The notes under the pieces: model-generated
What the model was told of the DNA's origin: nothing
Database searches by the model: none
What the model saw: only the letters and a program-made list of their open reading frames with translations
Made by a program: the position numbers and the translations under genes
Shown: positions 14,874 to 18,181 of the stretch, piece by piece
Layout of the letters: each line of letters begins with the position of its first letter
Numbering within the stretch: the stretch's first letter is position 1
Assembly: GCA_046542505.1 (NCBI GenBank)
Contig: JBKHBH010000036.1
Coordinates: forward strand, 1 to 18,337
Source of the DNA: Thermovirgaceae bacterium
Lineage (GTDB): Bacteria; Synergistota; Synergistia; Synergistales; Thermovirgaceae
DNA length: 18,337 bases
Direction: 5' to 3'

Positions 14874-15785
14874 TTAACTGTCGTTTCGTGCTGCAGATGC
14901 TGTGCGTACGCCCCAGAATTCGGCGTCGAGGCTTCCTGAGTAAGCGCGAAAATCTTCTCCGGGGTCTTTCATCTTGACGTAGAGTTCCGGAGAGCCCTCT
15001 TTCGGAATGGCGATAATCCATGTGGCCACAGTCCGGGATTTCCGCGAGTCGCTTCCGGTTCTGAAAACGCTGTTGTCGGTGCCGGCGTTTCGGTCTTCGC
15101 TGAATGTGACGAAATCTTCCATTGCGAGTTGTCCCTGCCGGTCCGAGAGAAGACTCGTTATCCGCTCGTAGCGGGTTTTGCTGCTTTTCGAAGCGCGGTC
15201 GTTGAACCACTTGAGCTCGGAAGAAACGTAGTGGTTCGTCTGGGCGAGGAACCCGTTGTCGATGACCCTGACGGCCGTCTTGCCGTCGGGCGCCCCTTCG
15301 AAGACGGCAACCTTCCGGGCGTCGGCAACCATATAATACGATGAGCGGGTGAACCGGTCTTTCTGGGCGATAACTTCGTCAACGGTGGCGTAGGATGTGA
15401 GAATTTCGTTGGACGAAATAGGATCTCCGCCGTCAGCGCTTCGATCGTTTTTCGGGATGACCGAAGCAGTAGCCGTAACGACGGCCAGACCCTTTTCGTT
15501 GATTCCGCCCTTGAGCCCGGGGCTGTCTCCATCAAAGGCAAAAAGCCCAAGATATGAATATCCCTCACGAGACCTGACCTGCTGCAGGGCATGGCTTTGC
15601 CCCGGTTTCCAGTCCCTGTTTTTGGCCAGGATGGTGTATCCTTCGGCTGTCCCGGAACCCGTTGCCGCCCACAATGTGCAGGCTTCGATGGGCGCGGCCC
15701 ACATGAGGAAGACAAAAAGAAGGATGGCCGCAAGGACTCTTTTTGCTCCGATACGTTCAATAAGTTTTCTTCTGACTGGCTTCAT
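14874..15785 (-). CDS. Secreted C45-like Ntn-hydrolase (acyl-CoA:6-APA acyltransferase/carcinine hydrolase family)
   Basis: Basic plus hydrophobic signal peptide ending PIEA, then CTLW (Cys36, N-terminal nucleophile), AKNRDW, GINEKGL, QTNHY, SSKTRY. Start placed at ATG 15785 (AGGAG at 15796-15800); the longer ORF runs into the riboswitch. Confidence 0.82.
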   Translation of the reverse strand: MKPVRRKLIERIGAKRVLAAILLFVFLMWAAPIEACTLWAATGSGTAEGYTILAKNRDWKPGQSHALQQVRSREGYSYLGLFAFDGDSPGLKGGINEKGLAVVTATASVIPKNDRSADGGDPISSNEILTSYATVDEVIAQKDRFTRSSYYMVADARKVAVFEGAPDGKTAVRVIDNGFLAQTNHYVSSELKWFNDRASKSSKTRYERITSLLSDRQGQLAMEDFVTFSEDRNAGTDNSVFRTGSDSRKSRTVATWIIAIPKEGSPELYVKMKDPGEDFRAYSGSLDAEFWGVRTASAARNDS

Positions 15786-15881
15786 GATTCTGACGCTCCT
15801 GTTTTTCGAAACGGGACGCGTCCGGGTCTTTCGCAAACCTGCTGCCTCTGGAATCTTTGGGGAATCTTCCTGGAAGGCGTG

Positions 15882-15910
15882 AAAAAGCCTTCGGGAATTT
15901 TCCCGAAGGC
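15882..15910 (-). terminator. Intrinsic terminator (expression platform) of the downstream riboswitch
   Basis: Minus strand GCCTTCGGGAA-AA-TTCCCGAAGGC-TTTTTC. Confidence 0.85.
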
Positions 15911-15920
15911 AAAGAAACGG

Positions 15921-16012
15921 TGCCTTCGGCAGCTCGGCGGTCATGGCCTTTTTCAGGCTTTAGACCCGTAGCTTTGCGTCATCGCCTTTCAGCGATTTTG
16001 CCGTTTCGGGCA
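15921..16012 (-). ncRNA. c-di-GMP-I (GEMM) riboswitch aptamer, downstream copy
   Basis: Minus strand TGCCCGAAACGGCAAAATCGCT-GAAA-GGCGATGACGCAAAGCTACGGGTCTAAAGCCTGAAAAAGGCCATGACCGCCGAGCTGCCGAAGGCA. It has GGCAAA, GNRA-capped P2, GACGCAAAGC, the CTAA/ATG tetraloop receptor and a 3' GCCG. Confidence 0.93.
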
Positions 16013-16045
16013 TATTTTTTCTTTCAAAGGTGCGCGGAAGGCGTT

Positions 16046-16091
16046 AAAAAAAACGGTGCCTTCCGGAATCTTCATCCGAAAGGCACCGTTT
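16046..16091 (-). terminator. Intrinsic terminator (expression platform) of the upstream riboswitch
   Basis: Minus strand AAACGGTGCCTTTCGGA-TGAAGAT-TCCGGAAGGCACCGTTT-TTTTT. The single non-Watson-Crick pair is U.G only on the minus strand. Confidence 0.88.
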
Positions 16092-16105
16092 GGAAACATT
16101 TTAAT

Positions 16106-16193
16106 CTTCGGTGGCCCGGCGATCATTGCCTTTTCAGGCTTTAGACCCGTAGCTTTGCGCCATCGCCTTTCGACGATTTTGCCCTTTCGGATG
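16106..16193 (-). ncRNA. c-di-GMP-I (GEMM) riboswitch aptamer, upstream copy
   Basis: Minus strand CATCCGAAAGGGCAAAATCGTC-GAAA-GGCGATGGCGCAAAGCTACGGGTCTAAAGCCTGAAAAGGCAATGATCGCCGGGCCACCGAAG; the same GEMM hallmarks as the downstream copy. Confidence 0.93.
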
Positions 16194-16238
16194 GTGATGC
16201 TGTACTTTACACTGCGAAACACTCTTGGTTGCTTACAT

Positions 16239-16266
16239 ACCTTACCATGTTTTTTGTCTTTGTCAA
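16239..16266 (-). promoter_or_regulatory. Putative sigma70 promoter driving the tandem-riboswitch leader
   Basis: TTGACA-N16-TAAGGT with TG at the extended -10 position; the predicted TSS lies about 40 nt before the first aptamer. Confidence 0.6.
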
Positions 16267-16387
16267 GATAGCTGGATGTAAGCAATTCTCGTGCTTTCCT
16301 CCCCCTTTCGCTGCCTGTACATGGGAAGGCCTTTGTCGCTATACTCCAGGTGTGATTCAAAATTCCAATGTCTATGGAGGCAACATC

Positions 16388-18181
16388 ATGCAGCGTTTCT
16401 GGCTGAAAAAGACGCCGTTTTGTGTCGGAATCATTTTGGCTGCTCTTTTCATTCTGGCGGATTTTTCAAGTGGAGTTTCCTCAGCTTTTACGCCAGCCGA
16501 ATGGATAAAGACAGTTGGTCTTGATGTGGTCTTGACCCGGGAGGAAAAGGAAAGTCTTTTGGATTACGCGTCTTCGAAGCTGTCTTCCAAAGAAGCGACG
16601 GGAAGGTCCCTGAAAGGTCTCCCTTCTGATGACCAAAAGCGTGTTCTTTTCGTCAGTGCAAGCGACGGAAAAAGTCCTGCGGTTATTGGCATCGGAGAAG
16701 GAAACGGTTACCGGGAAGCCCTCGATGCAGCCATTTCGAAGCTGCCTAAAAAAACCGAAAACCCTTTGTGGATCAAGATCGACATAATCGACGGCTTGCA
16801 ATTCAGATGCAAGGAGCTGCTGACCGAACCGGTTGCGATACAAAAAGGTATCGAAGGAATCATTTTCCCAGGATGCCCTTCCTGTGTTTTTTTGCCTGAG
16901 ACGGTAGTGGTAAAAAAAATCATCGGTGAAGACGGTTTCCTGAGGGCGGAAAACTTTGTCAGCGAGGGTGGGCCTCAGGCGCGGGAATTCTTCAAGCACT
17001 TGCTGGATGTTCACTCGGCGGACCGATTGGATTTCCGGACGACTTCCTTCATAAAGGACGAGACCGGTTTTCGGGACGTGTCTCGAGGGAAGCAACAGGG
17101 AACTTTTTCTTCAGATGAATTGCTGGCGGCTTCCGGAAGCGCCGCGGGTTATCTCGCGAGGATGGTGGACGCGTCGGGTCGGTTTGTGTATCGATATGAT
17201 CCGCTCGAAGATAAAAAACTTGGAGGGTATAACATCCTGCGTCATGCCGGGACGCTTTTTTCCATGCTCGAATATTGCCAGATCGAAAAAGATAGCCGGA
17301 CGCTCGAATCGGCACGGCGAGCCTTGAGGTATCTTTTGGGGCAGATAGAGACAATACGGAGCAACGGGGTCGAAATGGCCTGCGTCGTAGAGGACGGCGA
17401 GGTCAAACTCGGTGGTAACGGGCTCGCAGCCCTTGCGATCGCCAAATACATCGAGGTGACAGGCGACAGGAAAAATCTTCCCGTTTTGCGGAAACTGTGT
17501 GAGTGGATGGTGCACGTCCAGGATTCGTCCGGGCGGTTTATTGTCCACAAACAGGATTTTCCCGATGGCCGGGTTTCTGATTTTCGGTCGTCCTATTATC
17601 CGGGCGAGGCGATTTTCGGCCTGATGAGAACCTTCGAAATCGATAGCGATGAGAGATGGCTCCAGGCGGCCGATGCGGCGGCAAGATACCTGATCACCGT
17701 TCGGGACAGGGGACTCCCCGATGTCCAGTTACCTCATGACCATTGGCTGCTCTATGGATTGAATGAGCTTTACCATCAGGAGAAGGGCCGGCTTTTCGCA
17801 AATCACGCATTCAGGATCGCGCGAGCCATCATTGGCGCACAAAACCAGAAGATGGCTTCAGTGGACTGGAATGGCGGATTCGGGTTCAACCCGCGTTCCA
17901 CACCGGCGGCGACACGTATGGAAGGAATGGGGGCGGCATACCGAATTGCCCTCGCAGTCAATGACGAAGAGATGAAAAAACGCATCCTCGAATCCCTTCG
18001 GTTGGGAAACGGGTTCCTTCTGCGAACCCTGATCGATCCCTCATGGGCCATGTATATGAAGAGTCCTTCCAGGGCCGTGGGCGGGGTCCGCAAAAGCCAG
18101 AACGATTTCGAAGTCCGTATCGACTACGTGCAACACAGTCTTTCGGCCTTTCTTTCCATGCATTCCATTCTTGAAGAATAA
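16388..18181 (+). CDS. Exported protein of unknown function; possible AMMECR1-like N-terminal region and C-terminal (alpha/alpha) toroid domain
   Basis: ATG 16388 after GGAGG; signal-peptide-like N-terminus. Helical repeats with GRFVY, YNILRHAG, KLGGNGLAALA, QDSSGRF, YYPGEAIFGL, DHWL and RIDYVQH motifs; ~597 aa. The domain calls are by resemblance only. Confidence 0.75.
   Translation: MQRFWLKKTPFCVGIILAALFILADFSSGVSSAFTPAEWIKTVGLDVVLTREEKESLLDYASSKLSSKEATGRSLKGLPSDDQKRVLFVSASDGKSPAVIGIGEGNGYREALDAAISKLPKKTENPLWIKIDIIDGLQFRCKELLTEPVAIQKGIEGIIFPGCPSCVFLPETVVVKKIIGEDGFLRAENFVSEGGPQAREFFKHLLDVHSADRLDFRTTSFIKDETGFRDVSRGKQQGTFSSDELLAASGSAAGYLARMVDASGRFVYRYDPLEDKKLGGYNILRHAGTLFSMLEYCQIEKDSRTLESARRALRYLLGQIETIRSNGVEMACVVEDGEVKLGGNGLAALAIAKYIEVTGDRKNLPVLRKLCEWMVHVQDSSGRFIVHKQDFPDGRVSDFRSSYYPGEAIFGLMRTFEIDSDERWLQAADAAARYLITVRDRGLPDVQLPHDHWLLYGLNELYHQEKGRLFANHAFRIARAIIGAQNQKMASVDWNGGFGFNPRSTPAATRMEGMGAAYRIALAVNDEEMKKRILESLRLGNGFLLRTLIDPSWAMYMKSPSRAVGGVRKSQNDFEVRIDYVQHSLSAFLSMHSILEE

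Follow-up and report, generated by a model that had tools for sequence, protein, structure and literature searches.

The stretch of DNA analyzed here (hereinafter the window), positions 1 to 18,337 of contig JBKHBH010000036.1 from a bacterium of the family Thermovirgaceae, encodes on its minus strand a C45-family (AAT, Ntn) hydrolase, and two aptamers of the cyclic di-GMP (c-di-GMP)-I class follow one another in the leader of this gene. The leader probably comprises two independent, complete c-di-GMP-I riboswitches that are arranged in series within approximately 447 nt and both act as transcriptional OFF switches of the hydrolase gene. The identity of the aptamers, the terminators, the mutually exclusive pairings and the conservation on which this reading is built were computed in the present work, and from these we infer that the aptamers bind their ligand, in which direction they switch, where transcription starts and that the two units are independent. 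An earlier, sequence-only reading of the same DNA, made without database searches, had already proposed two complete tandem c-di-GMP-I riboswitches, each with an intrinsic terminator of its own, and this proposal is borne out by the covariance model search, by the terminator and folding results and by the conservation in relatives. That reading made no call between ON and OFF; the anatomy of the leader points to OFF for both units.

Two complete c-di-GMP-I aptamers in one leader

The window was scanned over its whole length against Rfam 15 using cmscan. Exactly two matches exceeded the gathering score, both to RF01051 (c-di-GMP-I; curated gathering score 35 bits), both on the minus strand and both covering positions 1-87 of the 87 model positions. 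The promoter-distal aptamer 1 occupies positions 16107..16193 (82.6 bits, E-value 2.7e-15) and the gene-proximal aptamer 2 occupies positions 15925..16012 (87.5 bits, E-value 1.7e-16); each of these scores is at least 47 bits over the cut-off, and RF01051 outscores the variant models of its clan in the window. The aptamers are separated by 94 nt (16106-16013) and both are located upstream of the hydrolase gene, which starts at 15785. The covariance model matches expected by the sequence-only reading (approximately 15921-16012 and 16106-16193) were recovered to within 1-4 nt, and the imperfect direct repeat with a period of about 180 nt noticed there has a measured spacing of 181-182 nt, with one block of 60 nt at 93% identity and another of 29 nt at 83%. 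A chance or spurious repeat was rejected on the strength of the E-values (1e-15 to 1e-16) and the conservation.

The aptamer fold, which includes P2 with a GNRA tetraloop, P3 with an internal hairpin and the conserved junction, is present in both copies, and the GAAA loops and the junction letters agree with the consensus. Every model pair of aptamer 2 is standard; aptamer 1 contains a single non-standard pair, A-C at model pair 40-81 (16154 with 16113), which adjoins the junction. Within P2, two neighboring stem positions are exchanged from one copy to the other, and each version pairs with the same 3' strand via a G-U wobble, in agreement with the earlier claim that the differences in this stem preserve pairing, and across the aligned aptamers of relatives U-A to C-G changes are observed in P2. 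The closing helix P1 lies outside the RF01051 model. Helices of 5-6 bp can be drawn for both aptamers, the candidates being 16192-16188 paired with 16110-16109 and 16106-16104 in aptamer 1, and 16012-16007 paired with 15928-15927 and 15924-15921 in aptamer 2; by eye, the flanking letters seem to co-vary across the leaders of relatives.

Both aptamers have G at model position 11, the specificity position (16183 in aptamer 1 and 16002 in aptamer 2), and the same is true of all 20 complete aptamers (20/20) that were aligned from the window and its relatives. On the Cd1 numbering, we take this Rfam column to correspond to G20 of Vc2 and G11 of Cd1. The Cd1 position equivalent to Vc2 G20 is described as a selectivity factor among cyclic dinucleotides (PMC9262584), and a ligand-contacting position is reported to be G in c-di-GMP binders versus A in c-AMP-GMP binders (PMC9481103). 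With G at this position in both copies, the possibility that either is a sensor of cyclic GMP-AMP (cGAMP) was rejected. Judging from these sequence features, both aptamers are most likely c-di-GMP-I sensors.

Terminators, antiterminators and the proposed polarity of the switches

A hairpin followed by a U-tract is found downstream of each aptamer on the same strand. Terminator 1 (T1; 16046..16091, minus strand) consists of a 17-bp hairpin (16091-16075 with 16067-16051) with a 7-nt loop and eight U at 16053-16046, and terminator 2 (T2; 15882..15910, minus strand) consists of a hairpin formed by 15910-15900 with 15897-15887 and five U at 15886-15882; the terminator scan counts 10 pairs in T2, and the respective inverted repeat is 11 nt long and 100% complementary. 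The stretch containing T1 has a fold energy of -29.9 kcal/mol (z -7.28) and the 51-nt stretch containing T2 one of -22.6 kcal/mol (z -3.79), with 0 of 200 shuffled sequences as stable in either case; the fold energy of the T2 hairpin itself is -18.4 to -19.6 kcal/mol. Both terminators were accepted because of their position, strand, stability and conservation, and not because of the count returned by the scan. T1 begins 15 nt and T2 begins 14 nt past the end of its own aptamer, without any overlap between terminator and aptamer, and the ends of the two U-tracts coincide with the stops that had been predicted near 16046 and 15882.

To look for potential antiterminators, each unit was folded as a transcript truncated immediately ahead of the 3' arm of its terminator, and the fold of minimum energy was inspected. 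In unit 1, the stretch 16073..16083 (minus strand), which shares 9 nt with the 5' arm of T1 (16091-16075), pairs in this fold with 16193-16183, the initial 11 nt of aptamer 1, which contain the 5' strand of P1 and the junction including the specificity G; the inverted repeat behind this pairing has arms at 16068-16083 and 16183-16198 that are 88% complementary. In unit 2, the truncated transcript forms a 9-pair hairpin with a 9-nt loop (15903..15929, minus strand; 15929-15921 with 15911-15903), the 5' arm of which is the 3' strand of P1 of aptamer 2 and the 3' arm of which is most of the 5' arm of T2. Each predicted antiterminator thus has 8-9 nt in common with the 5' arm of its own terminator and draws on P1 nucleotides.

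Under the proposed mechanism, when c-di-GMP is absent, the nucleotides required for P1 would pair with the 5' arm of the terminator, yielding an antiterminator (built from the P1 5' strand and the junction in unit 1 and from the P1 3' strand in unit 2) and allowing the polymerase to read through. When c-di-GMP is bound, P1 would be held within the aptamer, the 5' arm of the terminator would be freed, and transcription would stop near 16046 or near 15882. The OFF polarity of both units is suggested because P1 nucleotides compete for the 5' arms of the terminators and neither terminator overlaps an aptamer; this assignment is read from truncated-transcript folds and coordinate overlaps. In the full-length folds, T1 and T2 both form regardless, in line with kinetic control, and antiterminator 2 would therefore have to act kinetically. 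Full-length mRNA would require both units to be unliganded and the output would be the product of two read-through probabilities; repression at high c-di-GMP would consequently be tighter and the response moderately steeper. In a simple equilibrium model of two independent OFF switches, the ligand span between 90% and 10% of the response shrinks from 81-fold to 40-fold, and with 90% termination per unit the residual expression drops from 0.1 to 0.01, which is the main gain. The "near-digital" control that had been envisaged from the sequence is, given this change of span, too strong a description; what the second unit would chiefly lower is the floor.

Transcription of the leader could start from a putative sigma-70-type promoter that we read by eye at 16239..16266 (minus strand), with TTGACA as the -35 block at 16266-16261, a 16-nt spacer, TG two bases before the -10, and a weak -10 at 16244-16239 that matches the consensus at 3 of 6 positions. 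The implied transcription start at about 16232 gives a leader of approximately 447 nt. The -35 block, the TG and the first bases of the -10 are invariant in three leaders of the same genus, and in the other leaders of relatives that were compared, TTGACA precedes aptamer 1 by a comparable distance. At the opposite end of the leader, the Shine-Dalgarno sequence AGGAG (15800-15796) is paired with 15822-15814 in the folds. No other part of the leader is conserved as highly as the resulting hairpin (15792..15822, minus strand), which shares 95-98% identity with two sister species, compared with 89-94% for the aptamers. Both terminators precede this hairpin, and an alternative pairing partner for it was not identified.

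The sequence-only reading had further noticed a stem, a U-tract and the same trailing word after each aptamer, and had suggested that the whole unit was duplicated. The stems and U-tracts are those of T1 and T2, and copies of a nine-base word were located at 16036..16044 (minus strand), directly after the T1 U-tract and complementary to part of the T1 3' arm, and at 15872..15880 (minus strand), after the T2 U-tract; both sit in a 15-nt repeat with 93% identity. A role of this word as an anti-Shine-Dalgarno sequence or as a partner of the terminator 3' arm was considered and rejected as unconvincing, the word being only partly conserved in two sister species. As for the duplication, the aptamers are indeed in register, and the platforms are not: the platform repeats occur at spacings of 136 and 164 nt, against 181-182 nt for the aptamers, and the two antiterminators are built differently, so that the platforms are not simple copies of each other. 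Aptamer 1 is 85% identical to aptamer 2 of the same leader and 89-92% identical to aptamer 1 of sister species, and being nearer to the latter it indicates that the duplication is old and predates these species. Among the platform repeats, a 17-nt pair (16047-16063 and 15911-15927, 94%, spacing 136) gives the T1 3' arm and U-tract a likeness to the tail of aptamer 2 together with the antiterminator loop; as a result of this repeat, a perfect complement of 12 nt to the 5' arm of T1 is also present at 15915-15926.

Conservation of the tandem arrangement in Synergistales

Among 61 genomes sampled from relatives, RF01051 was detected in 22 and a homologue of the hydrolase in 12. Order-wide, a hydrolase homologue (E-value at most 1e-30) is encoded in 18 of 261 genomes, and at least two aptamers of the clan are located directly upstream of it in 14 of these 18. 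This arrangement is present in 5 of the 7 genomes with a homologue from the same family as the window, in all 9 of a second family and in neither of the 2 genomes of a third, the homologues of which are 38-41% identical; the gene-proximal aptamer is retained in all 14 leaders that have any aptamer. The two exceptions in the family of the window differ in kind. The contig of G012 stops at the 5' end of the gene and is uninformative, and G004, a complete genome of the same genus, contains no RF01051 match genome-wide and retains the C-terminal two thirds of the hydrolase only. At that locus (G004:C1:1952000-1954600), a 210-aa open reading frame (ORF) starts near residue 102 and has no signal sequence, no Cys and no upstream riboswitch. 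In the second family, the leader of G050 is broken by a run of N. Nine loci with homologues from outside the order (Vulcanimicrobiota, Syntrophobacterales, Leptospirales, Chromobacterium) carry no c-di-GMP-I aptamer within 1.5 kb upstream, and the link between the aptamers and the hydrolase is therefore specific to the order among the loci searched.

Comparison of positional counterparts within the genus gives identities of 89-94% for the aptamers (aptamer 2, 91-94% among three species) and of 33-59% for the spacers, which implies selection on the aptamers. The helices of unit 1 were followed across five genomes of the family: the 11 pairs of antiterminator 1 are formed in 55 of 55 cells, with one compensatory pair (CG in three genomes, AU in two), and the 13 pairs counted for T1 in 64 of 64 cells, again with one compensatory pair, compared with at most 58% pairing in slid controls.

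Several relatives display further variations on the tandem arrangement. The second-family genome G042 carries a triplet upstream of the same hydrolase (G042:C5; 94528-94612, 94669-94753 and 94810-94894), of which units 2 and 3 are identical 141-nt copies, terminator included, that score 90.7 bits each; this identity points to a very recent duplication. The proximal aptamer of G063, also of the second family (L059:1308-1392), finds its best match in RF03167 (the variant model c-di-GMP-I-GGC, 77.5 bits) and not in RF01051, and on this sequence match the doublet may be a same-leader pair with differing binding pockets. Four Synergistales genomes of family f6 (G041, G049, G056 and G023) contain 12-18 c-di-GMP-I aptamers each, including clusters a few kb apart, and in G056 an aptamer doublet (G056:C128:29-284) is located away from the hydrolase gene.

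The variable second expression platform

The platform that follows the gene-proximal aptamer is the changeable part of the leader: a terminator in this position is found only in the genome of the window and in the sister species G005. The sister species G001 has no counterpart of 15920-15886, a 35-nt stretch that encompasses the antiterminator loop and the whole of T2. In the window, this stretch is bounded by identical 8-nt words, 15929-15922 and 15894-15887, which suggests that T2 was gained or lost in a single repeat-mediated step, by slippage or recombination. In two other members of the family, G010 and G014, the last aptamer was folded with and without its tail: with the tail withheld the ribosome-binding site is sequestered by the downstream sequence, and with the tail included this sequence and the tail form a long anti-aptamer helix. 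On these modelled folds, the last platform of both genomes is a predicted translational OFF switch, with the same outcome reached by another route.

These comparisons raise the possibility, which we regard as rather doubtful, that the doublet is an old module of the entire order and that the secreted C45 Ntn hydrolase is a dedicated "low c-di-GMP" output of Synergistales, as opposed to a one-off duplication. If so, the first unit would always be transcriptional and the last platform would be exchangeable, passing between sequestration of the ribosome-binding site and a true terminator via the 35-nt repeat-bounded indel. The use of opposite P1 strands by the two antiterminators, together with the difference in the pair adjacent to the pocket, would then perhaps confer different thresholds and a two-step response instead of one that is only steeper.

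Alternative scenarios

Two OFF switches in series appear to be the best supported reading of the leader, and a number of observations weigh against it. A consensus promoter scan returned no site on the minus strand, including the regions between and after the aptamers, leaving the promoter read by eye; the scan missed the putative site because its -10 matches only 3 of 6 positions. A loose terminator scan yields 2 sites per 900 nt, compared with 2.2 +/- 1.6 in shuffled sequences, a count that is not above chance. A search for RNA sequencing runs covering 15700-16400 listed none. The full-length fold of unit 2 shows T2 alongside an alternative helix that closes aptamer 2. The affinity of aptamer 1 may be reduced by its A-C mismatch near the junction. 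T2 is missing in the sister species G001 and in nine other informative relatives, which have no canonical terminator after the last aptamer, and the U-tract of its counterpart in G005 is interrupted. Finally, the covariation is thin (5 sequences and 1 compensatory pair per helix, with structures derived from one of the sequences counted), and shuffled sequences reach the observed score in 59 of 500 trials for antiterminator 1 and in 97 of 500 for T1, which makes for a weak control.

Some of these observations would fit a leader in which only unit 1 works, with aptamer 2 and T2 being redundant, decaying or a lineage-specific by-product of the 35-nt repeat-mediated insertion, and in which the gene behaves as if under a single riboswitch. 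The absence of the 15920-15886 counterpart from G001, with the stretch bounded by 8-nt repeats as slippage or recombination would leave it, the mere five U of T2 and the interrupted tract in G005, and the formation of T2 unaided in the full-length fold all agree with such a scenario. We nevertheless consider it unlikely: aptamer 2 outscores aptamer 1 (87.5 versus 82.6 bits) and is 91-94% identical among three species, far from the 33-59% of the spacers; the gene-proximal aptamer is the one kept in 14 of 14 aptamer-bearing leaders; and, until the 3' arm of T2 has been made, antiterminator 2 is the preferred fold.

Less probable still is a scenario in which one or both units are ON switches, such that c-di-GMP prevents termination and the gene is induced at high c-di-GMP, or the pair acts as a band-pass filter. 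Riboswitches of the c-di-GMP-I class with both polarities are known (PMC9262584, PMC9481103), and the polarity proposed here comes solely from predicted pairings. However, no nucleotides are common to the terminators and the aptamers, and the competitors of the terminator 5' arms are P1 nucleotides, so that a formed P1 frees the terminator; the translational platforms of G010 and G014 give the same OFF polarity. That the two aptamers sense different ligands, for instance one of them 3',3'-cGAMP or some variant ligand, and jointly make a two-input logic gate is highly improbable: GEMM-I variants with altered specificity do exist (PMC9481103), the proximal aptamer of G063 prefers RF03167 and the mismatch of aptamer 1 is near the pocket, but the specificity position is G in both aptamers and in every aligned one, and both score far above the RF01051 cut-off and better with this model than with the clan variants.

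The hydrolase, its neighborhood and the supply of c-di-GMP

The gene downstream of the leader (14874..15785, minus strand) encodes a 303-aa protein that was assigned to the C45 family by its matches to PF03417 (86 bits with a cut-off of 23.2, E-value 4e-24) and NF040521 (102.8 bits with a cut-off of 85, profile positions 85-307 of 313) and by the alignment with the nearest solved structure, PDB 3gvz, the uncharacterized protein CV2077 of Chromobacterium (E-value 1.9e-48), in which the motif around the Cys is aligned. At the N-terminus, a hydrophobic, signal-like stretch ends directly before the Cys of the conserved motif, and this Cys coincides in the alignment with the beginning of the catalytic domain. 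The N-terminal pro-region of C45 proteins was not found here; coverage of the NCBIfam profile begins at position 85 of 313, and a signal-like N-terminus is present instead. From this arrangement, the product is predicted to be a secreted Ntn hydrolase, the Cys nucleophile of which would be exposed when signal peptidase removes the signal peptide.

The leader is overlaid by several ORFs, as the sequence-only reading had warned when it called such ORFs spurious. The extension of the hydrolase gene in the ORF list reaches an ATG at 15944, inside aptamer 2, and three mechanical ORFs overlap the leader, at 15989-16360 on the minus strand and at 15857-16144 and 16056-16271 on the plus strand; leader-overlapping ORFs of at least 60 aa were taken as mechanical without a family search. 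Upstream of the leader, a divergent 596-aa ORF on the plus strand (16391-18181) has no match in Pfam or NCBIfam, and a promoter-like site is located ahead of it at 16316-16345 on the plus strand.

The genome assembly comprises 2.14 Mb in 142 contigs, with a completeness of 93.5%. Its proteins include 12 GGDEF matches and 1 EAL match, and c-di-GMP is therefore made by the organism. Only three RF01051 aptamers are present genome-wide, the two in the window and one on another contig. The latter (G000:C117:7350-7445, minus strand, 79.4 bits) is a single aptamer, which by eye has a terminator-like hairpin and a U-tract of its own and is followed by an ORF.

Implications

In annotations of this region, two riboswitches should be recorded in the leader, with the gene start set to 15785 and not to the ATG at 15944 within the aptamer. 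If the proposed regulation holds, two of the three c-di-GMP-I aptamers of a small genome guard this one gene, which would link c-di-GMP signaling in a little-studied thermophilic, amino-acid-fermenting lineage to a single secreted hydrolase and offer a handle on the role of this enzyme family. The 14 related leaders constitute a natural series, in which doublets and triplets, terminators and translational devices as the last platform, and the creation or loss of a terminator through a repeat-bounded indel can be compared. The additions made by this locus are modest, namely the conserved link to the hydrolase, the predicted OFF/OFF polarity, the two antiterminator designs and the exchangeable last platform; the understanding of how tandem riboswitches work is unchanged by it.

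Comparison with known tandem riboswitches

Tandem thiamine pyrophosphate riboswitches are independent OFF switches for the same ligand arranged in series, which achieve a steeper response without true cooperativity; they differ from the present doublet in the ligand and in the aptamer class. Tandem arrangement of c-di-GMP-I riboswitches is itself an already documented kind, of which the locus described here is a further member. With 347 doublets and 12 triplets in the survey of Sherlock et al. (2022, PMC9481103), c-di-GMP-I tandems outnumber the same-class tandems of every other riboswitch class, and such tandems are classed as "pseudo-cooperative" with multiple expression platforms. A 2025 survey reports that c-di-GMP riboswitches are significantly enriched as tandem complete units, with Thermodesulfobacteriota and Deinococcota given as the source of this enrichment and COG1305 named for Bacillota (PMC12452182).

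The present doublet is like the tandems of PMC9481103 in that two complete riboswitches of the same class, each with its own terminator, share one leader. The portions of PMC9481103 and PMC12452182 consulted name no example from Synergistota and no C45 hydrolase target. In the literature on c-di-GMP riboswitches, on Synergistota and Thermovirga and on peptidase C45, we found no description of this locus type, which the supplementary lists of PMC9481103 may include; in the available part of the Thermovirga lienii survey (PMC6429828), c-di-GMP appears only in the reference list. The triplet of Bacillus thuringiensis (2016, PMC4759541) is likewise a naturally occurring row of complete c-di-GMP-I riboswitches within a single 5' untranslated region and, according to PMC9481103, gave more digital expression; it differs from the leader analyzed here in having three units and in belonging to another phylum and preceding another gene.

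A mechanistic parallel is provided by Cd1 of Clostridioides difficile, a validated transcriptional OFF switch in which the terminator (T+H) lies downstream of the aptamer, the layout also seen in unit 2 (PMC9262584). The antiterminator of Cd1 employs the aptamer-stabilizing 3' strand of P1 (A), is only transiently stable and is under kinetic control (PMC9262584), as we propose for unit 2. Cd1 is a single unit, and unit 1 of the present doublet departs from it in that the predicted partner of its antiterminator is the 5' strand of P1 together with the junction.

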